From a virus (lineage: Duplodnaviria; Heunggongvirae; Uroviricota; Caudoviricetes), in IMG/VR virus record IMGVR_UViG_2925908680_000001: a DNA stretch of 64,000 nucleotides, one strand, 5' to 3'. The position numbers were made by a program, and so were the translations under genes. The stretch's first letter is position 1. Each line of letters starts with the position of its first letter. Below are positions 34,967 through 61,200 of this stretch, in pieces. The notes beneath the pieces are model-generated. The model worked only from the letters and a program-made list of their open reading frames with translations. It was not told where the DNA came from and ran no database searches.

Positions 34967-35254
34967 TTATTTTGCTTCCTCAGACTCCGCTAACATGAGG
35001 ATAGCATGGCGGATCATATTCAATTTGCTACGATTATGCTTTTTACTTAACGCATCAAGTACCTGGTACTCGTATTCATTGAAACCAACACGAATAGATT
35101 TAAAATCACGTGGAGCGTCCTTATCGAGCACTTTGTTGTCTTCTGGTTGCTCACCCGGCACCAAATCAGCCTTACTTGCAAAATCCTCAATTCGGCGTTC
35201 AAGATCGGGGTCTTTTACTTCGGGGGCTTTTACCGATTTACGAGGCTTAATCAC
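34967..35254 (-). CDS. small partition DNA-binding protein (ParG/ParB-like)
   Basis: 95-aa ORF immediately downstream of, and overlapping, a ParA-type ATPase gene. Confidence 0.5.
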   Translation of the reverse strand: MIKPRKSVKAPEVKDPDLERRIEDFASKADLVPGEQPEDNKVLDKDAPRDFKSIRVGFNEYEYQVLDALSKKHNRSKLNMIRHAILMLAESEEAK

Positions 35255-35888
35255 TTAATAACTCCTTAACCAACATCTGGATTTCACCTTTAGCTTTCCC
35301 GTTGTCCATCTCAACAACGCCCTTCCCTTCAGCCATGCAATCGCGGTAAACCTTACGATCACGAATGATGGTTTTCAGCAACTTCAGTTGCGGATATTCA
35401 GCCAGGTACTCTTTGGCCTCATTGGTTTCATTCACAACCGGATTGGATGGGGCCATTGTTAAGACTGCGAACGCCTTAATGCTAGGATTAGGCATCAGGT
35501 CCAAAGCCTCTTCAAACACTTCAACAAAGTGTGCCAGCGTGTCTAAATCTGGTTGAGATGGTCTGAATGGGACCAACACAATATCTGCAGCGGTTATGCC
35601 TGTACGCATCTCTTTGCTATCGCGCCCGGCTGTATCAACAACTACAAATTCATAACGCTTATCCAGATCGAGAAGTGTTTCTCGAATATTACCAAACTTC
35701 TGGACACAATGAATTACAGGAGAAACCTCTGCCGTGTTACGGTCAGCGGCCCAGCGGGCAGCTGTTCCTTGCTTGTCTGCATCTAGTAACACTACATCCT
35801 TATTTTCGCGGGCAAGCTCCGCACAGATGTTTACGCTTGTGGTTGATTTTCCACAGCCACCTTTTTGGCTGACTACCAATATAATCAT
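35247..35888 (-). CDS. parA: ParA/ParF-type partition ATPase
   Basis: Deviant Walker A (KGGCGKST) and ParA family layout. Confidence 0.85.
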   Translation of the reverse strand: MIILVVSQKGGCGKSTTSVNICAELARENKDVVLLDADKQGTAARWAADRNTAEVSPVIHCVQKFGNIRETLLDLDKRYEFVVVDTAGRDSKEMRTGITAADIVLVPFRPSQPDLDTLAHFVEVFEEALDLMPNPSIKAFAVLTMAPSNPVVNETNEAKEYLAEYPQLKLLKTIIRDRKVYRDCMAEGKGVVEMDNGKAKGEIQMLVKELLSD

Positions 35889-35889
35889 A

Positions 35890-36170
35890 TCCGTTCCTCG
35901 GTGTTATTTTGGTATCAAACTGGTTCCAAACAGAAGCCTTATTGATGCGGTTTTGGCTCTATAGTGGAGTCATTATGCTTTGCAAAAGTATAACACTAAT
36001 CATTCTAAATTTGCCCTCTGTTGCATCCTGTTTAACACGAAATCAGCACTAAATTGGAACCAGATACAAAGCAGCACCATAACAACACCGTTTTGGTACT
36101 AAAAGAGCACCAAACTAGAATCATAACGGTATAAAAAAGGCTGCAAATTGCAGCCTTTGAAGATGTAGAT
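35890..36170. repeat. centromere-like repeat region (TTGGTAC / TGGTTCCAAA / GGTGCACC motifs)
   Basis: Multiple direct and inverted short repeats upstream of parA; related motifs also at about 34860-34930. Confidence 0.35.
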
Positions 36171-36173
36171 TGG

Positions 36174-36545
36174 TTAATCAGGGAGTGAGTTTGCCAAATT
36201 CTGAGCAGAGCGGCTTTTCGGAACGCCTGGTTTTTTTACATCCTCTGAGACAGAGGTTTTTCCTTCAGTAGGTTCCCGAACTTCATGCGAAATTTCAAGA
36301 AACGAAACCAGCATTTTTCTGATCACTTCAGAGCTATTATCACCGGATAAAAGCGATGCCAACATGGGAGGTAATCTGCTATCAACCTCGCCAAGAGCGA
36401 TACCTGCAAGCATCGCAGTGCGCACCATATCATTGCGATCACTTAATGGATGGGCCTCAATTTTTGCCACAGCATATTGCTCACTGGCGTAAGCGTTAAG
36501 ATCTGAACGAAGATAAAACATTATTTTTCGACGTTCTTTAGACAT
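36174..36545 (-). CDS. ParR/StbB-like partition adaptor
   Basis: Small ORF immediately downstream of the actin-like ATPase gene. Confidence 0.5.
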   Translation of the reverse strand: MSKERRKIMFYLRSDLNAYASEQYAVAKIEAHPLSDRNDMVRTAMLAGIALGEVDSRLPPMLASLLSGDNSSEVIRKMLVSFLEISHEVREPTEGKTSVSEDVKKPGVPKSRSAQNLANSLPD

Positions 36546-36555
36546 GGCAACCTCA

Positions 36556-37515
36556 TCAACCGATAGATTTTAGACCATATACAAGAGCAAGTTGTGGATC
36601 ATCAGCAACGAAAAACCTATCGTCACGAATGTTTACCTGCTCACGGATAGCATCAGCAACAAGCGGCGCGCCGCCACCAATTACCATAACATGTGTGTAT
36701 CCTTTGAAATCACTGATCACATCCAGTACGCGTGTACGGAGTCGCTCTATGCTTGACGAAATGGCTTTCTTAACATCATCAATAGCAGACGGATCGTTAA
36801 TATTGTCGGTCAGATAATCCTCATCATCTCGATTAATGATTAATTGATCGACGTTATAATTAGAGGTTTCGGTATTAGCTTTTGCAAGTGCCTGTCTGAC
36901 CTCTTTAGTTACCAGCGAAACGCCGAGATTAGAATCGCCAAATACGCGAGAAACGGCGGTCATTTGCCCGGCAACCATCGACACATCCAGAGTAGTCCCG
37001 CCAAGATCAACAATAAGCACAGAATGCGCTGGCACAAGGCTGTCGCACAGACCGATCCCTGCGGGTATTGACTCCGGGCGCACAGTCACTTTTTTGATAG
37101 TAAAAACCTGACCTTTGTTAAGGGTGACTGGTCGCATCAGGCTGGCCTTTTTCCGCTCAATATTTTTCATGTTGTATTGTGCGTCGTCGTCATAAAACTC
37201 TGCCAGTGGCAACGTGACTACTATTTCCACTTCTTGAGGCTCAATGCCACTTGTAAGCAGGGCATGATGAACAGCAAGCACATTAAGCGGGCTGTATTGC
37301 CATTCAACGTTATTCGTTGGCAGAACATCCGGCGAGATCAAGTCATATGAATATTTTTCGTCATCAATGATGTAGTTAAACGTTTTTCCTGCGCCAAATG
37401 TGGCGGACCATCCACGTTTAAAACTGTTCGGGCAGATATGGGTTCGAGTTTCCCCGTCTTGTTCCCACAGCATTTTGATATTGGTAGAACCATCGTCGAT
37501 AAAAATGCGCATCAT
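36556..37515 (-). CDS. parM: ParM/StbA actin-like segregation ATPase
   Basis: Actin-fold motifs (IFIDDGSTNIK, VLIVDLGGTTLD, VMVIGGGA); start taken at the internal MMRIF. Confidence 0.85.
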   Translation of the reverse strand: MMRIFIDDGSTNIKMLWEQDGETRTHICPNSFKRGWSATFGAGKTFNYIIDDEKYSYDLISPDVLPTNNVEWQYSPLNVLAVHHALLTSGIEPQEVEIVVTLPLAEFYDDDAQYNMKNIERKKASLMRPVTLNKGQVFTIKKVTVRPESIPAGIGLCDSLVPAHSVLIVDLGGTTLDVSMVAGQMTAVSRVFGDSNLGVSLVTKEVRQALAKANTETSNYNVDQLIINRDDEDYLTDNINDPSAIDDVKKAISSSIERLRTRVLDVISDFKGYTHVMVIGGGAPLVADAIREQVNIRDDRFFVADDPQLALVYGLKSIG

Positions 37516-37610
37516 ATTGCTCCACTTCTGAGACACATTTGAGAAAGAATTGAATCTTATATGAGAAAACAAAATAAAACCAGAAGTTGAGAGAGCAAAA
37601 AGCACCAGAT

Positions 37611-37666
37611 TTGAGACAAACCAGAGACAAACTAGAGACACACTAGAGACAAGTATGAGAAACAAG
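37611..37666. repeat. parC-like iterated repeats
   Basis: Four to five tandem copies of about 11 bp (ccagagacaaa, ctagagacaca, ctagagacaag) upstream of parM. Confidence 0.5.
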
Positions 37667-37723
37667 AAATCTTAAGAGTGAAAATCACAAAGTGGAGAAG
37701 ATTTAAGAAAAAGGAGGTGTTAG

Positions 37724-39343: not shown

Positions 39344-39503
39344 TTACTCCCCTTGTTTAGTGCCAGAGGACACGCCAGTGCTGTTAAACAAGTATCCGAC
39401 ATACGCTGAACAGTTATTCAGCACGATCGACGAATGCAACCAACGAAACGCACTGAATAACCAAAGAAACAGGGAGATTTGGGAAGGGGACAGGCGGCAG
39501 TGA
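39177..39503 (+). CDS. o-spanin lipoprotein (Rz1-like), overlapping the Rz frame
   Basis: Lipobox LSGC after a signal peptide; +1-frame gene overlapping the 3' end of Rz. Confidence 0.55.
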   Translation: MKSLALKIRCAVLGLTMCVYLMTLSGCSGNGQKPSTSVPVKITVEATSKPQANLIDYSPCLVPEDTPVLLNKYPTYAEQLFSTIDECNQRNALNNQRNREIWEGDRRQ

Positions 39504-39869
39504 GCTTCACAAAAGCTACATAATTATTTTGCGTTAGAAAAATAATTTGAATTTTCGAACATAAATAATAAAATAAATCATCAAAAATTTGATGTTGATC
39601 TTCCATGTTTTCAGGCTTATATTCACGCCGTCGTAGCAAATTCTGCGACCGGGTTTAGCAGCCTGAATGATTGTGCGGACAACCGCAGATTTCCGATATT
39701 GCGGTATTTTTGTGTCCGTAAACCGCGTTACGCCCGAATTATGGTGGGGCGTGATGGGGAGGCTTCGGCCTGCTGGTTTCACAATCGCCAGTCTGCTAAC
39801 CCCGTCACGTCCTGCCACCCGTTTAGCAGCGGGTAGCAGGTTGTTAAACCTGATTGTGAGGCCGTAACT

Positions 39870-40085
39870 ATGGTTAATGCCAATCCTTGCCCTCGCCCGG
39901 AATTTATCTGGCGCTTTTATTCCTGCACAAAACACACCTACATCAGCGTAATGGCAGCTACTGAGGCTGAAGCGCGTTCATTTCTTCCTACAGATCCGTG
40001 CATTTTTGCCGCTCGCTTTAAACCCGATGCTCTGGACGTTTTGACCTACTGGAACCGCCCAATGAACTGCGTGGAGGTGCACTGA
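39870..40085 (+). CDS. Icd-like small protein (immI-like module 2)
   Basis: Paralog of the 21117-21332 product; stop overlaps the ant start. Confidence 0.5.
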   Translation: MVNANPCPRPEFIWRFYSCTKHTYISVMAATEAEARSFLPTDPCIFAARFKPDALDVLTYWNRPMNCVEVH

Positions 40086-41011
40086 TGAATCTGTCCATCT
40101 CTCAAAAAGTGACAATGACAAGTATTGAGATCGCGGAGCTGGTGGGAAGTCGTCATGACAAGGTGAAACAATCTATTGAACGACTGGCGGGACGAGGTGT
40201 AATAGCTTTTCCCCCAATGGGGGAGAAGCCCACCGCAGGCCGCCCGGCGAGCTATTACGTCTTTGAAGGCGAGCAAGGCAAGCGCGACAGCATTGTTGTC
40301 GTCGCACAGCTTTCTCCCGAATTTACCGCCCGACTGGTGGACCGCTGGCGCGAACTGGAGAGTGCCAAAGTACAGTTAAAATCAAAGGCCGAAATCCTGG
40401 CCGAAATGGCGCAAATGCATCTTGAGCATGAACGCCGGATCAACGCCGTAAATGCCCAGGTAGCCGAGGTATCAGCACAAGTGTCCAGGGTCACTGAAAC
40501 ACTTGAGCAGATCAAGAAAGGCAATATTCCGGAAGGCTACATTGGCTACCGCCAGCTGGCGGCGAAATGTGGCCTGACTGAAGCCAAATGTCGCAACCTG
40601 GTTAACGCTTTCCGGATTCCCACCGATACGCATGAGTTTTTAACTCCAGATGGTTTGCTTGCGCGACGCTCCATTGTGGCCCTGGCCCCCTTCCGGAAAG
40701 CCTTTAAGCAGGTGATGTCGGAGGCAGAACCACGCAATAAACGCTGGTATCATCCAAAGATGGGGATGTTTCAGGCAATCCACCATCCTGTGCCTGAAAG
40801 CCCAAAGGATAATCTGTCACTACATACCGTCAGAGAGAAGATCAGGACTGGATACGCAACAGTGTGTCGTCGTTCTTCCTGGCCTGAAGGTATATGGGTG
40901 TGGCCCGAAGGTGGATCACGAAAGCACTGGCGCACTATCCGAGATGGGAAAATCCATGCTATTGATTTAGCTCCAGAGGATATTGTTGCTACGGACTGGA
41001 TTGTTAGTTAA
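40085..41011 (+). CDS. ant: antirepressor Ant (copy 2)
   Basis: C-terminal roughly 250 aa nearly identical to copy 1; N-terminal roughly 60 aa divergent. Confidence 0.75.
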   Translation: MNLSISQKVTMTSIEIAELVGSRHDKVKQSIERLAGRGVIAFPPMGEKPTAGRPASYYVFEGEQGKRDSIVVVAQLSPEFTARLVDRWRELESAKVQLKSKAEILAEMAQMHLEHERRINAVNAQVAEVSAQVSRVTETLEQIKKGNIPEGYIGYRQLAAKCGLTEAKCRNLVNAFRIPTDTHEFLTPDGLLARRSIVALAPFRKAFKQVMSEAEPRNKRWYHPKMGMFQAIHHPVPESPKDNLSLHTVREKIRTGYATVCRRSSWPEGIWVWPEGGSRKHWRTIRDGKIHAIDLAPEDIVATDWIVS

Positions 41012-41019
41012 TTACTGTT

Positions 41020-41043
41020 GCCCCGGCCAGGCCGGGGCTTTCG
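41020..41043 (+). terminator. hairpin terminator after ant copy 2
   Basis: gccccggcc-ag-gccggggc followed by tttcg. Confidence 0.5.
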
Positions 41044-41046
41044 TGA

Positions 41047-41451
41047 CTAAAAATCTGTTCGCTGTCGCCATGCGTTTTTTAACTCAGGAATATCCGCCAT
41101 TTCAATTAACTTGCGAAGTCCAGCACTGACTTTCCCATTGCCAACCATAGCAAGCCAATCTCTTACTGCTTTCGGCATGTAGAGCGTTGCAGTTACCGGC
41201 TCTTCAACCCTGGCAGGACATCCGCATACAGGCCATTTAATTGATTCCATAACTTCGGATGCCGGGGTGAGGGCGGGGACATTGAGTATATCTCTACCAG
41301 AAAACTGGATAACGATCCGTTCAGCGAGCGAGAGTATCTCACTTTCGGCAAGAATTGATGCCAACTGCGCCTCAACAAGAAAGCGACTTGTTGTGTTCAG
41401 AGAGTGGCTCTTAGCGCCATTTTTATACGAAACAAAGATTCGATACGCCAT
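41047..41451 (-). CDS. hypothetical protein, 134 aa
   Basis: ORF only. Confidence 0.5.
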   Translation of the reverse strand: MAYRIFVSYKNGAKSHSLNTTSRFLVEAQLASILAESEILSLAERIVIQFSGRDILNVPALTPASEVMESIKWPVCGCPARVEEPVTATLYMPKAVRDWLAMVGNGKVSAGLRKLIEMADIPELKNAWRQRTDF

Positions 41452-46885: not shown

Positions 46886-47377
46886 ATGTCCGGTTTTGCA
46901 AATACAAAAGCCGATATGGCCTTTCTAAAATCCCGGTTTAATAAAAACCTGGCTGCAGGCGAAAAACTTATTGGTTCTGAATATTGGATGACCATTAAGG
47001 GTTACGAACATCTGTCTGTACTAGTTCGTACAGCTCAGTTACCAGAAATGACACGTGAAGATGTGGAGGATTACGCCCCTGGTGGCATGAAATTCAACCA
47101 GCACGGACCATTACGCAACTCTGGTGAATTTCAGGTCACATGCGCGGAAACTATCGAAGGCGCAGTTCTCGCCGCTGTAAAACAGATGGTATACGGAAAA
47201 GAATATCTGGAAATTACCTTACAGGCGGCGGCTGAATCGAATAGCGGTAACCATAAAGGTCTGATCCGCACATATTCTCATTGCAAAGTGTATTCCGACG
47301 CCGTGGACTTCTCATCCGAAGACGTAACGGCGGTCGTTAAACCTTCCCTGCGCATTGTTTACAACTGGGCGGAATAA
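46886..47377 (+). CDS. tail tube-like protein, 163 aa
   Basis: Size and position typical of a myovirus tube protein. Confidence 0.45.
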   Translation: MSGFANTKADMAFLKSRFNKNLAAGEKLIGSEYWMTIKGYEHLSVLVRTAQLPEMTREDVEDYAPGGMKFNQHGPLRNSGEFQVTCAETIEGAVLAAVKQMVYGKEYLEITLQAAAESNSGNHKGLIRTYSHCKVYSDAVDFSSEDVTAVVKPSLRIVYNWAE

Positions 47378-47431
47378 TCCCTATCCCGCCCTTGTGGCGG
47401 GAACATCCTTGTTATTGAGTTGTAGGCAACA

Positions 47432-47983
47432 ATGACACCAATTGAATTATTAGAAAGCGTTAAAGAGCGATTTAATCCGCTGCTTGTGCGTGAAGAAGAA
47501 ACGTTGAAAGCATTCCTGATCAAAGCTCTGACCACGTATCAGGACAGGGCAGGGGTAGTGAAAACGTTAAAACTTGAAAAAGCTGGTGGTACTGCAATCC
47601 CGTTGCCAGAAGATTATCTCTCTCTGGTTCATGTTACCGACAACAACGGCTTATTGGTCTATTCGGATGAATTATCCGGATTTATTGAATTAGAGCTAAC
47701 AGGTTCAGAACGCTGGCCTTTTCGAATGCTGTATCTGGTTAATCTACGCGACAGAGAGCTGGATGAATGGCAAGTGCCTCCTGCAATCATTGGAATGCTG
47801 GAGGAATATCTGGAGGCGCTTATCAATGTAAGAAATGTCGCCCGGCAGCGTAGAGCGTCCATCGACGGGAAATTTGACTACTCAGATCTGCCCGATGAAG
47901 CCACGCTATATGCCCGCGTGCAGGAGATTGAGGAAAAAATGTCCTCAAACCGGGCCATTATTCCGGGGGCTACCATTTTTTAA
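47432..47983 (+). CDS. tail-associated hypothetical protein
   Basis: ORF in the tail operon. Confidence 0.45.
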   Translation: MTPIELLESVKERFNPLLVREEETLKAFLIKALTTYQDRAGVVKTLKLEKAGGTAIPLPEDYLSLVHVTDNNGLLVYSDELSGFIELELTGSERWPFRMLYLVNLRDRELDEWQVPPAIIGMLEEYLEALINVRNVARQRRASIDGKFDYSDLPDEATLYARVQEIEEKMSSNRAIIPGATIF

Positions 47984-47998
47984 CGCTGGAGGCGCAGA

Positions 47999-48706
47999 GT
48001 GAGTATTTTCAGCAGCGTTGGTAGAACGTTGACCACCGCATTGTCATTTAACACGAAATCATTCACCAGCAACCTCATTAGCGACATTCTTGATAAAGCC
48101 ATATCAGGCGGCGGGGTAAGCGGGAATTACAGTAGCGATATTGCCTACGGGAAAAATATTGTTGCTGCCGCTATGCGTATCCGTTACGCCCAGGGGTGGC
48201 AGTGGACCGTTGAAGTGGATGGCCTGAACGGCTTCGATATGTTCGTGAAGGATATCACCTACAGCAGTGGAAACATTGAGACAGAAAGCAAGGTGATCGG
48301 CAGCGTAGAATTCAGCAAGCCAACCTATGTTAGCGCCGGACCGGTCACTATGACCGTGAGGGATACCGAAGATGGCAAGATCATGGACTGGTTCAAAGAG
48401 CGTCGTTCTCGTGTAACAAATCCTGATGGAACAATAAACCTTCCTCCTGAATATCTGATGAAAATCCGTGTCTACCGGGTGACTCAGGACGGCGGAAAAG
48501 AACTGGAAGAAGAAATGCGCGTATTTCCTACGCAACTTGGGGAAATCACACGCTCACGTGATCAGGTGTCAGAGTTCTTGTCATACCCAATCACTTTCCA
48601 GAAATACACATCCGCAGGCTCAGGTGTTTCTGCTTTGGTCAACGGTGCCGCTGGCATGGCTACAAGTGCGTTAAAGGGGGCTGTGAGTGGAGTGATCAAA
48701 TTCTGA
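47999..48706 (+). CDS. tail-associated hypothetical protein
   Basis: ORF in the tail operon. Confidence 0.45.
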   Translation: MSIFSSVGRTLTTALSFNTKSFTSNLISDILDKAISGGGVSGNYSSDIAYGKNIVAAAMRIRYAQGWQWTVEVDGLNGFDMFVKDITYSSGNIETESKVIGSVEFSKPTYVSAGPVTMTVRDTEDGKIMDWFKERRSRVTNPDGTINLPPEYLMKIRVYRVTQDGGKELEEEMRVFPTQLGEITRSRDQVSEFLSYPITFQKYTSAGSGVSALVNGAAGMATSALKGAVSGVIKF

Positions 48707-48794
48707 ATAGCTTTAATTATGTGTGCTGGAGGGTTGCTCATTTCCCGTCAGCACCCACGCCCTCAACGATAGCGGGTAGGGAAGGTAGCGCAAT

Positions 48795-49087
48795 TTTGAG
48801 GGCATTTTTTACATCATCAATTCATCTGTAATGAAGGCATTCTTTACACATTTCATATCAATCAGTTAACACAGTGAATGATAATAAAAAAGCGCAATAA
48901 GAATGCACGATACGCACGATATTGGTTGAGGGCGATTTTTACATAGTCCTTACATATCAATACGTTATATAAAAACACAACTTGCTAATAACAAGATACA
49001 TGCAATTAAGATGTAAAAATTGCCCTCAATTGCCGATCGTTAAGGGCAAATTCTACACCTTGAGAGGGGTGTAAAAATTGCCCTTAA
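48795..49087. repeat. iteron array downstream of repA (incA-like)
   Basis: Five copies of an about 20-bp unit TTGAGGGCAnnTnTTACA(C/T)C in both orientations (48795, 48926, 49020, 49040, 49068). Confidence 0.7.
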
Positions 49088-49872
49088 GACTGCTGATAGG
49101 TAAATTTTATCCTGGTAACTTTGCCGCCTTCCGTCACCTCTGAGAAGACTATTTTCATTTTTGTATTTTTTTCAATCTCTGCTACAGCCTTCGTTAAAAA
49201 ACTTCTCTTAAATTCGGCATACCGCTGATAGCTTTTTGGTAACCCATAACGCTCCCGCATCCATTCGACGCCAAGTATGGCAAAGCCGCTTCCATCATCC
49301 TTCCTGTACTGGCATAAGGACTCATAAAGCCGCATAGAATAAGGATTTGTAAGGCGAGATACTTCGGTAAAATTCAGCCTTGTGAATCTCTTATCAAGCA
49401 GAGTAAAAAACGGCATGAGATATGGATTAAGATGAATAATGTAAGTCCCGCGCCGTGGTGAATAGGCATCCTTAATCATCCAAGGATAAGACTCATAACT
49501 GTCTTCTGATTCGGTCGATTCATCAGGGTTATATATCGTAACTTTCTTCTCGCTAAGCCCTGAAATGGCCTTACGAATATCCTTGCTGGCTTCAGCAGAG
49601 GGCAAATTATACATCTCTGCATATTCGTTGACCGTCAACTCACAGGCACCTGAACCAAGAACGCCATCCTTAGAAGCATAGCGAAGTCTTCCCACCACAA
49701 TAAACAACAGTCGCTTTTGGTCGCGAGTCAGGTGATAAGCAGCCTCCGTGATCTCATTGGCTTGTGCCAAACTACGACTAATAGGTGTCGCTGACTCAAT
49801 CAGGCTGACGGCTTTTGCTGTTAATTCCGCTCTGTTCATAACCCTGTGTGATCCTTCAAATGGTGAGGGCAA
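49084..49872 (-). CDS. repA: plasmid replication initiator RepA (iteron-binding)
   Basis: ORF flanked on both sides by iterons of one family; start codon uncertain (possibly the internal MNRAEL). Confidence 0.75.
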   Translation of the reverse strand: MPSPFEGSHRVMNRAELTAKAVSLIESATPISRSLAQANEITEAAYHLTRDQKRLLFIVVGRLRYASKDGVLGSGACELTVNEYAEMYNLPSAEASKDIRKAISGLSEKKVTIYNPDESTESEDSYESYPWMIKDAYSPRRGTYIIHLNPYLMPFFTLLDKRFTRLNFTEVSRLTNPYSMRLYESLCQYRKDDGSGFAILGVEWMRERYGLPKSYQRYAEFKRSFLTKAVAEIEKNTKMKIVFSEVTEGGKVTRIKFTYQQS

Positions 49873-50123
49873 TTTTTACATCACTTTGAGGGCAATTACT
49901 ACACCTTTTAAGGGCAAATCTTACACCTTTTGAGGGCAAATCTTACACCGATCGTATTTAATTGAGGGCAAATCTTACACCAGCCTCCTCTACAGCCCGC
50001 GCCACTACTGGCTCCAGCGACGCCTAAAAAGGATCTAAAAAGAATTAAAAATGGAAAAAGGTTTATAAAAATACTCTGTGGATATGTGAGTAGCGTCACT
50101 TAAGGTGTAAAAATCACCCTCAA
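49864..50123. other. plasmid origin region (oriR-like): five direct iterons, one inverted iterons, DnaA box, AT-rich stretch, GATC sites
   Basis: Iterons at 49864, 49886, 49908, 49930, 49963 and inverted at 50104; DnaA-box-like TGTGGATAT at 50078-50086; GATC at about 49951 and 50032. Confidence 0.7.
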
Positions 50124-50227
50124 TAATCGCTTCTCGACCGGCAAAGATCTTCATTCAATCCCCATCGCAAATCACACACTCCCTATCCTCTGGAAAATGA
50201 ACAGATACCTGCTTTTCGGAGGAATAA

Positions 50228-51049
50228 TTGAACATTCCAAAATTCCCATTGCCTTCCCGTCCTGAGACAGAAATTCAGTTCCACGCCCCTACCGTGAAGG
50301 ATGCGCTGAAATATTCTGACCTGAACCCGGCAGAAGATGAGGCAACTACTACAGAGTACCTTAACTCTATGCAGGATGGTGAAATTAACGACAGTGCTAA
50401 CTGGACAGTTCAGGATCGCAGAACTGCTCTTTGGTGGATATTTGTTAATTCGCGCCCCGATGCAGTAATGACCTACTCCTATGAGTGCAGTCACTGCGGT
50501 AATACGCATCATGCAGATATTAACCTGAGCGACCTGGCCCAAACAGTAGAAATACTCACTGTACCTCCTTACGTGAAAACCAACGTACCAGTAAATGGAG
50601 TACCAACTGACTGGATACTTAAACCATTAACCGGGAAAGGCGCGGAACTCCTTGAACGAATGCGAGCGTCACTTCCTGATATGAAAAGCCCCGAATACAG
50701 TGCTGGCGTGGCACGGATGCGAATTGCTGAACTCGCTTTATGCACGGCGCTTGAAGACGATCCGGAGGACTTCACGCAGGCCGCTAACCGACGCTTTGAC
50801 ATCATTGAAAGCATGGCGCTTGAAACCGAATTTACTCCGCTTGTGGCTCGCATACAGCTTATGCAAAAAGACCTACGCCACGGCCTGAAAATGTCTATTG
50901 AGAGAGGCTCAAGCCGACTGATCCTGCCTCCGCAACATTGCAAAAACGCTAAGGAGGGTGCAGATGTGACAACCACACTGTACGTCCCCTTTCTCAATAG
51001 AGAGTTTATCCCATCAATTAGATCTGAATGGATGGCTAACCATTATTAA
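50228..51049 (+). CDS. hypothetical protein, 273 aa (possible tail assembly chaperone by position)
   Basis: ORF immediately upstream of the tape-measure-like gene. Confidence 0.45.
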   Translation: MNIPKFPLPSRPETEIQFHAPTVKDALKYSDLNPAEDEATTTEYLNSMQDGEINDSANWTVQDRRTALWWIFVNSRPDAVMTYSYECSHCGNTHHADINLSDLAQTVEILTVPPYVKTNVPVNGVPTDWILKPLTGKGAELLERMRASLPDMKSPEYSAGVARMRIAELALCTALEDDPEDFTQAANRRFDIIESMALETEFTPLVARIQLMQKDLRHGLKMSIERGSSRLILPPQHCKNAKEGADVTTTLYVPFLNREFIPSIRSEWMANHY

Positions 51050-51063
51050 CAACCTGACTCTAT

Positions 51064-54000
51064 ATGGATATCAGCCCGTTAGCGACGTTGAACAATTACC
51101 GCAATGGCGAGCACTCCATATGTCAAAAGCCCTGGAAGAAAAATACAAAGCTCAAGCCGGGAAACGTTGATCGCGCTGGTAAAAGAGAGGTTATTTTGAA
51201 AGAGAATAAAGACCGTATCGCAATAATTGACGCTATTCAGGAAGCGAGCACAAACGAACTTAAAGCTCTTGCTGAGGTAAAAGACGCCATTCTTTCTGGG
51301 GCAAGCACCATAACTCAACAGGACGAAAGGCAAGGCAGAGTTAGCAACAGACTATCACGCAGGCATAAAGAGTACGAGCAAAGTACATCTGATAGCGTTA
51401 GAGATGTCCAAACTAACCCATATAAAAAACGTCTCCCTGCTAAAAAGGAAAGGGCACCGATAAACCAAACCGTGGACCGCGCTATCGTTGCAACGAACAC
51501 ACCAGAAAGTGTTCGCTCCGTGCAATCACGTCAGACCATCCGAAAATCGGAAGGTTTTATACCGGTAGCTGCTAATTCAGCCCCTCTTGAACCACAACCC
51601 CCCCAAAGTCTAAAAGGCCCGCTGCGGGATAGTAATGGACGTTTTGTATCCCAGAAAAGTAATGAGGATGTAGCCAGAAAAAAAGAATTGCAGAACGCAC
51701 GTAAAGCCGACGCAAAATTACAAGCTGGCTTTCTCAGAAAGCTAGGTTCCATTATGGGGGTAGATGGCAATCAGTCTTCCAGTGAAGAGTCTTTAACAAA
51801 TGCAGCTGGTGTCGGTGCTGGTGGGCCGTTATGGATGGCGGCTCGTGGCATGTACGACATAACTAAAGAGATCACAGGTAAAGCAGAATCTCTTAAAGAA
51901 TTGGTAGAAAAGGGGAAAAAAGAAACATCAACCTCGAAAGCGATATCACCAGTAATTACTTATCCGGCGGCGGTGAATTCTCAAAAAGCAACATCTGCAA
52001 AAGCGTTCAATAACGCTGTTGAGACAAAATCCGCACAAGCAGTAGAAGAGCAAACCAAAATCCTTCAGACCAATGACAACAAAATAATTGATGGTCTGGA
52101 AAATGTTTCTGACGAGATAGTTAAGCTTCGGAAATCAGTGTCTTCTGGAAATAAGTTCGGCTTAAGTGATCTCTGGAAAAATCGAGCAAGCAGAAGAAAT
52201 AAAATCAATATTGGTGATCAGACGGGAAAAAATAAACGGAACAAATCGAAAAGGAAAGGACGCAATCTTGGGAAAAAAGCACTCTCCGCTGGCGAAAAAG
52301 TTGCTGCCGGTAGCGCTGCGGCTGGCACTGGTGTCGGAGCAGCAAAAGTAGTTAAAAATAAGATCAGCAAACCCAAAGATGTAAGCACTATCAGCGATAC
52401 ATCAAAGGGGATTGCAAAGGAAACAAAAAATACTGCTAAGGCCGTGAAGTCAGCTGGTGTTGTGGCTGAAGATGCCACCATTAAAACCGGCGAAGCCATT
52501 GCAAAGAAAAAAACTGAATCTGTAGCCCTCAAAAGTGCTGCAAAAATAGGTGTTAAATCAGCAGCATCCACAGCGGCAAGAGCGGTCCCTATCATCGGTT
52601 CGCTGGCAATGGCTGGATATGACGCCATAGATGGTTACACAGATACAGAGGCGCAAAAGGCAGCCTTTGGTTTAAGTGACGATGATGCTGTATCCGAACA
52701 GCAAAAAACGGCTTACGCAACAGCTAATGTGCTCGATATGGGGGGCTTGGTGTCGGGCGCAACGAACTTGATAGGGAAAGGAATTTCTGCGCTAGGATTT
52801 GAAAGAGCAGGTGAAAAACTTCAGAATTTTGATACCGGAGATATTGCTCGTGGTGTTAACGGCGCGGTAGATATCACCAAATCTGTTTTTGGTAGCCTTA
52901 AGGATACATTTTTATCCACTGACGAAAACACGAAACAAGTAAAAAAAGCTGTTGAAGACGGCACCAAAAAAACTGTCGATGCGATTCATTCTCTAGGTGA
53001 ACAATTACAAGGTGGGCGTAATGGCGAGGATGGAGTTGGTGAGCACGGGTATACTTCTCCAACTGAATTTAGTGCACCTGCCAACAACACCATTGCAGCG
53101 GATCTGAATATTGGCGGCAGCAACGCTAAAAACCGCAATTACCGAAATAATAATCTCGGTAATCTTGTTTTTGCCAACCAGGAAGGGGCGACGCTGGAAT
53201 CGCCAAATGCAAAGGGTGAACAACGTTTTGCGCGATTTAACACACCTGAAGAAGGGATCAGGGCACTGGCAAACCAGGTTTCCAGCTATTACAACGGCAC
53301 CAGTGCTGCAGCGGGATATCAGAAGTTACAGACGGTATCCAGCATCATTTCAAAATGGGCACCGCCAAATGAGAACAATACTAACCAATATATTGATAAC
53401 GTCAGTAAATATCTTGGTGTATCGCCTAATGAAAAAATAGATGTCAGCAACCCAGAGGTTATGACGCAATTAGTTCGTGCAATTGCGACGAAAGAAGGCG
53501 GAAATCCGGCAGTTAATAATGAGTTCATTAAGAATGCACTTGGAGCATTTAACACTAACACTGGTCGATGGGAGGGACAATTCTCTGACGAAACATTGGC
53601 GCGGATTAATAAAATTCAGAAAGAAAATGGTGGTCAGCTAATTGCCCGCGATTCGCAATATAGTGTTGGTCGCAAGGTAAAATATGCTAATGGAAAATCT
53701 CCAGCTCAACCAGTTTTGAATGCCGTTCCGACAGCAACACAACAGCCAATTGAGGTTGCACAACATGCCCAGGCAGTCAAAAAGCCACAAAAAACAGGCA
53801 ATCAATCGCAACCGATTAATCCAGAGATTGTTGATGTTAATACTGGCTCGCCATCAAGTCTGCTTGAGAGATTAATCGCTATAAATGACAGCGGGGTAGG
53901 TAATTTATTTGGAGGTGCGGCTACCAGCCTTGCTGGTACAAGCCTTGGCCTGATTAAGGATTTTGCGTCGGCGACTTCGTTTGGTTCTATATCTTCGCTT

Positions 54001-58203: not shown

Positions 58204-61200
58204 TTATGGGTGCTGATAAAACGAACAACATAATGACACTATCCTCTGGTGTCTCACAGCCGTTGCTTGCTGATGTTCAATATTTCGAACTCTATAGTAG
58301 TTCGGCTCTTAACAGAAAACTTAAAAATATTGTTTTGCCGGGCTTTTACTGTGGATTTGAACCAGTTCCCGGCACAGGGTTGAGCGTCCGTATAACTTCT
58401 GAAAACTCAGAAGGTAAAGGGGCTGCTTCAGTAGATGTAAATAATGTTCAGATATCCGTTCAGCAAATAGAAGATGTGACTGTCTCGGTAAAGGCTGGGG
58501 CTACCAACATTATTGTGCTAGAAGCCAATTTTGAACATGGTGTAAAAACGACACAGGTAGAGAGCGCATCTTCTGTCAGTGCTGCAAGAATTTACGCGCG
58601 TACGGACAATACTATTGGGCAGAATCAAATTGAATTATGTCGAGTTATCGTGCCTAACGGCGCAACGGCTGTGACGAAAGAAATGATTGTGCTTAAATAC
58701 CGGGTTAACCGTGCTGTTGGTGTCGAATTCTCTAATGAAATAAGCAGTACAGAAGAAAGAAAAGCGGCTACACCTCTGGCTGTCAAAACTCTCCATGATT
58801 TGGTTGATACAAAAGCTCCGCTCGATAGTCCACATCTGTCAGGTACGCCGACTTCGCCGACACCTGAACCCGGTACAAACAACACACAGATCGCAAATGC
58901 GGCCTTTGTCTATGCTGCTATAAATGCGCTTATCAATGGTGCTCCGGGAACGATGGACACGCTGAAAGAAATAGCGGCTGCGATCAATAACGACCCGAAT
59001 TTCAGCACAACTATCAACAATGCCCTGGCTCTTAAAGCTCCTTTGGCAAGCCCGGCGTTCACAGGTACGCCGACAGCACCTACGGCCTCACAAGGCACAA
59101 ATAGCACGCAGATTGCAAATACAGCCTTTGTTAAGGCAGCTATAACGGCACTTATCAACGGTGCACCTGGCACATTGGATACGCTGAAAGAAATAGCGGC
59201 TGCGATCAATAATGACCCGAATTTCAGCACAACTATCAACAATGCCCTGGCTCTTAAAGCTCCTTTGGCAAGCCCGGCGTTCACAGGTACGCCGACAGCA
59301 CCTACGGCCTCACAAGGCACAAATAGCACGCAGATTGCAAATACAGCCTTTGTTAAGGCAGCTATAACGGCACTTATCAACGGTGCACCTGGCACATTGG
59401 ATACGCTGAAAGAAATAGCGGCTGCGATCAATAATGACCCGAATTTCAGCACAACTATCAACAATGCCCTGGCTCTTAAAGCTCCTTTGGCAAGCCCGGC
59501 GTTCACAGGTACGCCGACAGCACCTACGGCCTCACAAGGCACAAATAGCACGCAGATTGCAAATACAGCCTTTGTTAAGGCAGCTATAACGGCACTTATC
59601 AACGGTGCACCTGGCACATTGGATACGCTGAAAGAAATAGCGGCTGCGATCAATAATGACCCGAATTTCAGCACAACTATCAACAATGCCTTGGCTCTCA
59701 AAGCGCCTTTGGCAAGCCCTGCATTAACGGGTGTCCCTACTGCGCCGACCGCCGCACAGGGCACAAATAATACGCAGATAGCTACGACCGCTTATGTAAG
59801 AGCTGCCATATCCGCATTGGTTGGTTCATCACCAGAAGCTCTTGATACCCTGAATGAGCTTGCCGCAGCACTTGGCAATGACCCGAACTTTGCGACAACA
59901 ATGACAAATGCGCTGGCAGGCAAACAGCCTCTGGATGCAACTTTAACCGCGTTTGCTGCCCTTGCGACTGGTGCAAACAAACTGCCTTATTTCACCGGTA
60001 AGGATACGGTAGCGCAGACTGATTTAACGTCAGTCGGTCGCGATATTCTGGCTAAAACAAGCACACTGGCCGTTATCCAATACCTTGGTTTAAGAGAACT
60101 CGGAACAAGCGGTGAAAAGATCCCCCTGTTGAGCACGGCTAACACATGGAGTGCACGCCAGACTTTCAACGGCGGGATCACCGGGGCGCTGACAGGGAAT
60201 GCCGACACCGCGACGAAATTGAAAACAGCCATAAACATTAATGGCGTCAGGTTCGATGGTTCTACGAACATTTCGATACCAACAATTACGTCTAGAGGAC
60301 GCGTTACTGCGCTTACCGGTACAACGCAAGGTGCTGCTACTGGATTGCAGATGTATGAGGCATACAACAATGGCTACCCTTCCCCCTATGGCAATGTGCT
60401 TCACCTTAAAGGTGCCACCGCTGCTGGCGAAGGTGAGTTATTCATTGGCTGGAGTGGCACGAGCGGTGCCCATGCGCCCGTACATATCCGTTCGCGGCGG
60501 GATACTGATTCTGCCAACTGGTCTGAATGGGCGCAGGTCTATACGTCAAAAGATTCAGTTCCCGGCGTCAATGCCAAAGGGGATCAGGATACCTCCGGCA
60601 ATGCTGCTACGGCGACCAGATTGCAGACGGCGCGCACTATTAACGGTGTCTCGTTTGATGGTTCTAAAAACATTGAGCTAACGGCGGAAGATTTAAATCT
60701 TGAGCAAACCGTAGAATTAGCCGCTGGATCATTGCAGAAAAACCAGAACGGCGCAGATATTCCAAACAAAGATAAATTTACGCAAACAATAGGTGCTTGC
60801 CGCTCTTTTCATGGTGCTATTAGCACAGGTGCAGGAAACTGGACGACGGCACAATTGATTGAATGGCTGGATTCTCAAGGGGCATTCAATCACCCATACT
60901 GGATGTGCAAATGTTCATGGTCATACGGCAATAATAAAATTATTACCGATACTGGCTGTGGAACTATTCATCTTGCAGGTTGCGTTATTGAGGTTATGGG
61001 TAATAAAGGTGCCATGACCATCCGTGTAACCACCCCGAGCACTTCCAGCGGTGGCGGAACTACTAATGCACAATTTACTTATATAAACCATGGCGCAGAT
61101 TACGCACCAGGCTGGCGGCGTGACTACAGTACCAAAAATCAGCAGCCTGCATTTGCTTTAGGGCAGACAGGAAGCACAGTTGGAAATGACAAAGCTGTTG

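Follow-up and report, generated by a model that had tools for sequence, protein, structure and literature searches.

A RepE-like iteron replicon beside probable fossil iterons in an exchangeable slot between the tail genes tub and pmgB of a D6-like phage-plasmid

In a 64,000-nt stretch of DNA from a tailed virus (Caudoviricetes; IMG/VR record IMGVR_UViG_2925908680_000001; here called the window), the interval at positions 48707-50227 is, as judged from its sequence, a complete iteron replicon located between the tail genes tub and pmgB of a D6-like phage-plasmid. We consider it very probable that this is a theta-type, iteron-controlled replicon of the Rep_3/RepE kind in a replicon-exchange slot at tub-pmgB, and that a pair of P1-type iterons at its tub-proximal edge is the non-functional fossil of an earlier incA array. 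The slot comprises the 1,521 bp between the stop of tub (ending at 48706) and the start of pmgB (50228). An initial annotation of this DNA, made from the letters alone, had recognised a repA replicon inside the tail cluster. This was borne out: the replicon splits the pmgC-tub-pmgB-sit block, which in P1 is contiguous behind the late promoter LPsit. The flanking proteins could be typed as tail tube, PmgB-like and Sit (tail injection transglycosylase / tape-measure-like); the gene from 50228 had been called a chaperone, which PmgB has not been shown to be. The features of the slot and its two flanks are as follows.

47999-48706, plus strand: tub, tail tube protein, left flank (PHROG 1842 tail tube, 1.3e-98).
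48719-48733, plus strand: probable fossil P1-type iteron with the exact 15-bp core ATGTGTGCTGGAGGG (one exact match in the window, 0 expected in shuffles).
48744-48758, minus strand: inverted and degenerate copy of the P1-type iteron, CCCGTCAGCACCCAC, which agrees with the core at 11/15 positions, forming a convergent pair with 48719-48733.
48796-49087: five to six predicted control (incC/incA-like) RepE-type iterons 3' of repA, at 48796 (plus), 48926 (plus), 49010 (minus), 49040 (plus) and 49068 (minus), with a degenerate further one near 48831.
49084-49839, minus strand: repA, the single gene of the interval, encoding a RepE-like Rep_3 initiator of 251 amino acids (Pfam PF01051 and PF21205; annotated as orf42 in D6).
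49596-49615, plus strand: candidate iteron-like site within repA, CAGAGGGCAAATTATACATC (5 mismatches to the consensus).
49863-49981, plus strand: five direct origin iterons, spaced 23, 22, 22 and 32 bp from start to start and lying 23 bp short of the repA ATG.
50020-50079, no strand: AT-rich stretch (75-80% AT), which is presumed, from F ori2 and P1 oriR, to be the place of DNA unwinding.
50077-50085, minus strand: DnaA-box-like site ATATCCACA (8/9 match), adjoining the AT-rich stretch.
50104-50123, minus strand: outlying iteron in reversed orientation, TTGAGGGTGATTTTTACACC, from the consensus scan.
50169-50190, plus strand: conserved right border of the exchangeable cassette, AAATCACACACTCCCTATCCTC, where homology among carriers resumes across different replicons.
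50228-51049, plus strand: pmgB homologue, right flank (PHROG 1854, 5e-135; orf41 of D6).

Both domains of the initiator exceed their gathering scores, Rep3_N (PF01051) with 2.9e-29 and Rep3_C (PF21205) with 9e-16, corresponding to the winged-helix domains WH1 and WH2. RepA is 50-51% identical to RepE of IncFIA (F-type) plasmids and reaches 280.6 bits with the NCBIfam RepE model NF010305, under the 342-bit equivalog cut-off. On these scores, it is an initiator of the Rep_3/RepE class that falls outside F RepE proper (the IncFIA equivalog). In BLAST comparisons, no significant similarity was found between this protein and the P1-type RepA of 286 amino acids that sibling plasmids encode (best E = 0.05).

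A 20-bp iteron, TTGAGGGCAAATCTTACACC, encircles repA. With shuffled sequence as the source of chance expectations for motif counts, the seven matches with at most three mismatches, all within 49010-49981, compare with 0 expected; at up to six mismatches, 12 of the 16 matches in the window lie within 48796-50123. The five direct iterons are separated from the AT-rich stretch by a GC-rich spacer. The DnaA box named in the initial annotation is a DnaA-box-like site beside this stretch and matches at 8/9 positions only. The window holds 16 such 8/9 matches against 14.8 expected, and the copy at 50077-50085, which is not significant alone, is kept in all RepE-type relatives examined. On the other side of repA, the iterons at 49040-49059 and 49068-49087 form a near-perfect palindrome with an 8-bp spacer, overlapping the repA stop codon. 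Folded as RNA, this palindrome reaches -31.5 kcal/mol (z = -7.4), and it may be a dimer-binding site, or the end or stabiliser of the repA transcript. The 22-nt border sequence AAATCACACACTCCCTATCCTC marks the right end of each replicon cassette, about 40 bp ahead of pmgB. Irrespective of the replicon carried, it hardly varies across the three D6-like clades and is better conserved than its surroundings; it is a possible recombination or regulatory site.

The iteron-controlled layout proposed at the outset (control iterons, rep, origin) proved to be arranged as in mini-P1 and mini-F, and the iterons, suspected to be of a non-P1 family, indeed belong to an F RepE-like replicon. The likeness to mini-F ori2/RepE/incC (IncFIA) includes the length of Rep (also 251 amino acids), the two winged-helix domains, and the order of DnaA-box-like site, AT-rich region, phased direct iterons, rep and second iteron cluster. 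The F ori2 iterons (TGTGACAAATTGCCCT, 22-bp spacing) have the TTGCCCT core, or the TTGCCCT(C/T)A half-site, in common with those of the window, where the half-sites are 1 bp closer together. Unlike F, the window has no separate inverted-repeat operator, as there are only 23 bp between the last iteron and the ATG, without a local inverted pair; no sopABC adjoins the replicon; and the downstream iterons are of mixed orientation, as in P1 incA, whereas those of F incC are all direct. The P1 R replicon (oriR/incC-repA-incA; IncY) has the same functional layout and is the source type of the pair at 48719-48758, but the working iterons of the window come from another family and its RepA is not P1-type.

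By analogy with mini-F and mini-P1, RepA monomers would bind the five phased iterons at 49863-49981 and, together with DnaA, would open the adjoining AT-rich region. Since no more than 23 bp lie between iterons and ATG, the repA promoter would have to overlap the iterons, so that RepA would repress its own synthesis; in this respect P1, not F, is the model. Titration and handcuffing by the iterons 3' of repA, five or six in number, would restrict the copy number, as in the same two model replicons.

With respect to its carrier, the window shares near-identity and the tub-rep-pmgB-sit synteny with phage D6, which places it among the D6-like phage-plasmids (P1-g2). The end of tub, the replicon and the start of pmgB are together 99.0% identical to D6 at the DNA level, and the gene order in D6 is the same, with tub (orf43; 99.6% identity to tub of the window, which has 51% to P1 Tub), rep (orf42), pmgB (orf41) and then sit. 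Over most of the 37 kb compared, window and D6 are 97-98% identical; the window is distinct in its par region (about 80% identity) and in additional DNA at 39.5-41.1 kb. The replicon itself is essentially without difference in D6 (NC_050154 / MF356679) and in D6-like plasmids, e.g. pYU39_89. In PLSDB, 123 plasmids of E. coli, Salmonella and Shigella match the region, 97 of them over at least 80% of the query, and a Rep with at least 95% identity is encoded in about 108 records. In D6 and more than 100 plasmids, the RepE-type rep is the only plasmid-type rep gene within the region examined, which gives indirect support to its presumed autonomous replication.

The replicon and its location among tail genes are already on record for D6 and hence nothing new. 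The main observation is correct but known, because the D6 record annotates orf42 as 'replication initiation protein ... pfam01051', and because 14 persistent genes have been reported to separate replication from partition in subgroup P1-g2 (PMC7969092). For a D6-like Salmonella plasmid, repB was described as 'associated with iteron sequences' (PMC6799933). In gene order P1 differs, and all D6-like elements share the placement, which is on record in the literature.

The P1-type pair beside tub has a history of its own. P1 has arrays of 19-bp iterons on both sides of repA, whereas the window has one exact core and one degenerate inverted copy at the tub edge. The initial annotation had pointed to a single P1-type motif at this place as a possible relic of replicon replacement; the motif is real and exact, its coordinates were one base off, and the inverted partner had been missed. 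The P1 iteron sequence on which that proposal drew was correct: ATGTGTGCTGGAGGG is the core of three of the nine annotated P1 incA iterons (iterons 1, 4 and 6). The three bases past the core deviate, with GGGTTG in the window vs GGGAAA in P1 iterons.

Support for a relic comes from siblings in which the slot is filled by an entire P1-type incA-repA-oriR cassette whose first iteron coincides in position with the motif. In plasmid pRHB39-C17_3 (CP057059.1), homology with the window ends exactly at 48733, and the core at 48719-48733 takes the place of iteron 1 in the P1-type array of this plasmid. After its tub gene, all on the strand opposite to the tail genes, come seven P1-type iterons (four direct, three inverted), the gene of a 286-amino-acid Rep with 84% identity to P1 RepA and no relationship to RepA of the window, and an oriR in which five iterons are accompanied by GATC repeats and a DnaA box; pmgB follows. 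A P1-type replicon occupies the slot in 9 of 117 PLSDB records, and the others listed align with the pRHB39 form only to the end of iteron 1. Among IMG/VR contigs, 14 have the RepE-type replicon plus relic and three the P1-type.

In view of these arrays, we give practically no credence to the idea that the 15-bp match arose by chance or belongs to an unrelated structure behind tub, be it a hairpin or a terminator. The pair can fold as a plus-strand hairpin of -18.7 kcal/mol, but this hairpin does not exceed shuffled sequence in stability (z = -1.28) and lacks a U-tract, for which reasons the pair was also rejected as a tub terminator. The exact 15-mer has an expectation of 0 in shuffles, and together with the sibling arrays and the inverted partner this effectively refutes a coincidental match.

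A longer form of the relic, consisting of iteron, spacer and inverted iteron, is found next to the RepE-type replicon in plasmids of clade II (about 91% tub identity; an E. fergusonii plasmid and CP091837). The pair spacing there is 44 nt, as between incA iterons 4 and 5 of pRHB39 and close to the 42 nt between P1 incA iterons 6 and 7; in the window and D6, the spacer is 19 nt shorter than in clade II. Between the window and CP042620, a clade I plasmid, about 7 of 40 relic positions differ, while tub is 96% identical between the same two, a divergence which fits neutral decay rather than function.

The slot has received further occupants. Two D6-like plasmids, CP085065 (clade III) and CP042620, encode a third Rep, which shares 41% identity with P1 RepA and 85% with a non-IncY Rep found beside parAB in about 400 P1-like plasmids, the latter probably being the 'p0111' replicase. 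Both keep, beside tub, RepE-type downstream iterons (three to four of them well preserved) and the final repA codons; CP042620 additionally keeps a decayed P1-type pair and so displays three layers, P1-type, RepE-type and third type. In the more distant Enterobacter plasmid pJBIWA008_2 (about 70-74% backbone identity), the order is tub-parB-parA-P1-type iterons-rep (861 bp)-pmgB, where rep was typed by its annotated length of 861 bp and the flanking P1-type iterons. A Leclercia relative has 194 bp only between tub and pmgB, and P1 has 14 bp only. In all occupants examined, rep is directed away from the tail genes, the origin lies beside pmgB and the control iterons lie beside tub.

We propose that each replacement would have used the right border, which is conserved, together with a left crossover that varied in place within the prior control array or the 3' end of rep. 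With the right border fixed and the left crossover variable, fossils would be left on the tub side only, and the pair at 48719-48758 would be such a non-functional fossil because the edge next to tub was carried over from the old cassette each time. The outgroup, the nested relic deletions and the three-layer plasmid support a succession in which the P1-type replicon came first, the RepE-type second and the third type last.

In the opposite order of events, the RepE-type replicon would be original, and the P1-type pair would have arrived later through partial recombination with a P1-type sibling, by a crossover in tub and an illegitimate join after the iterons. RepE-type occupants are present in all three D6-like clades and P1-type occupants were seen only inside clade I, and the tub and pmgB identities are mosaic among clade I members, as such a history would have it. 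Nonetheless we regard it as very unlikely: the nearest outgroup with a filled slot (Enterobacter) has a P1-type replicon with par; the relics of clades I and II are related by a nested deletion with the same junction, requiring one old event or repeated identical ones; and retention of the left edge recurs in the step from the RepE-type to the third replicon, the direction of which is unambiguous because the last repA codons were retained.

Several points weigh against replacement of a P1-type by a RepE-type replicon as we propose it. The order of events is not fully resolved, and the P1-type carriers, nesting in clade I, may have retained the old replicon or regained it. Nucleotide identity of the RepE-type rep between clades is 86-92%, vs 74-75% for tub and 81% for pmgB, so that recombination between clades, and not one ancient replacement, may have distributed the cassette. 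In clade III plasmids with the RepE-type replicon, a scan at up to four mismatches gave no recognisable P1-type relic; a degenerate candidate (AAAGTGCGAGAAGG...) was unconvincing, having no match at this threshold. As to the replicon itself, the DnaA box is imperfect, and a sigma-70 scan of 47300-50400 yielded one promoter-like site within repA and none upstream of it. Finally, the stratified iteron fossils and the three alternative replicons at tub-pmgB are undescribed in the searchable literature, outside of which lies the D6 genome paper; they may already be described there.

Alternatively, the retained foreign iterons might still act as incompatibility determinants, binding the older-type initiator of a sibling, lowering its copy number and giving a one-way advantage in co-infection. 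The control-array side is the one that exerts incompatibility in P1 (incA) and F (incC), and the relics are always from the control-array side of the previous replicon. Moreover, the third-replicon plasmids retain three to four well-preserved RepE-type iterons, and about 100 records in PLSDB and 14 contigs in IMG/VR still have the exact 15-bp core. The conservation of the core among RepE-type records says little, though, because these records are nearly clonal. In the window, one good and one poor P1-type site remain, which should titrate little if the copy number is low as in P1, as is presumed; the bases after the core deviate from P1 iterons; and the P1-type pair has lost part of its length in clade I, has decayed in CP042620 and is missing from clade III. 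We therefore consider a working determinant improbable and prefer the non-functional fossil. An extension of the same thought would see tub-pmgB as a maintained polymorphic cassette locus, at which at least three iteron replicons cycle under incompatibility-driven, frequency-dependent selection and the kept iterons serve as one-way weapons against siblings with the old replicon; this is a speculative proposal to which we assign a low probability.

Replicon exchange as such has precedent: P1-like phage-plasmids carry differing replicase families (IncY vs p0111) at one position and are otherwise collinear (Pfeifer et al. 2021, PMC7969092). In contrast to that case, the exchange here concerns the D6-like subgroup and another site (tub-pmgB), and it involves three families, one RepE-like, one IncY-like and a third that shares 85% identity with the non-IncY P1-like replicase.

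Three further observations concern slots and cassettes of relatives. In some D6-like plasmids (PLSDB records H87, H90 and H91), tnpA-tnpB of the IS200/IS605 type are inserted within the tub-replicon-pmgB interval. The tub-pmgB gap of Leclercia pZ96-1_2 (2050-2130 of its extract) contains GTATGACT five times in tandem and, after these, inverted copies of it, which may be a binding-site array. In the P1-like plasmid pSA186_4 (2462-3271 of its extract), a gene for a GIY-YIG nuclease lies between parA and the non-IncY rep, which could bear on how replicon cassettes move.

Partition is located elsewhere. The P1 R replicon was correctly taken to adjoin the partition genes: parS-parB-parA-incA-repA-oriR are contiguous in P1, next to gene 23 and not tail genes, whereas no parA-parB-parS adjoins the replicon of the window. 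The distance of about 12 kb given for the window also agrees with the 11-13.5 kb found, and the system is a different one, ParMR-type and not P1 ParAB. Its components were assigned with Pfam.

35247-37665, minus strand: partition region, 11-13.5 kb from the replicon.
35247-35888, minus strand: small ParA-like ATPase.
36174-36545, minus strand: ParR/StbB-like protein.
36556-37665, minus strand: ParM/StbA.

At 37613-37660, tandem repeats of 11 bp (GAGACAAAC.A) resemble a centromere of the parC type. The ParM/ParR region (36157-37712) is about 80% identical to D6, vs 98% in the flanks, and the partition module therefore also looks exchanged.

Scanning the window with a late-promoter pattern derived from P1 LPsit, LPs and LP23 gave nothing near pmgC or pmgB. 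Within 47300-50400, terminator-like sites were not above chance, and an Rfam search of 47300-51200 matched no RNA family. The sequence TCCCTATCC, which occurs exactly upstream of both pmgC and pmgB, was considered as a late-gene signal and dismissed; its pairing is attributed to chance because conservation of the pmgC copy does not extend to other clades. Between bplB and pmgC, at the place of P1 LPsit, there is a GC-rich hairpin (47385-47401, CCCGCC-CTTGT-GGCGGG), which is retained in other clades via compensatory changes.

Two regions of the window outside the replicon differ from D6 or are repetitive. At 39488-41063, the window has about 1.1 kb more DNA than the matching D6 interval, including an open reading frame (40085-41011) with a sub-threshold match to the Rha regulator. 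At 59062-59560, there are three staggered, overlapping matches to one unit (about 278 bp) of the D6 tail-fibre gene region, a pattern that resembles the repeated elements of P1 gene S.

Taken together, at least three iteron replicons have occupied one short intergenic site in a phage-plasmid family that is widespread among E. coli, Salmonella and Shigella, and a relative has an entire par-rep module there. Iteron fossils that can be dated remain from each turnover and provide a rare readable record of the order in which replicons were replaced. Turnover in this slot also explains why D6-like elements evade or confuse replicon typing (MOB-suite clusters 1704, 2221 and 2164).

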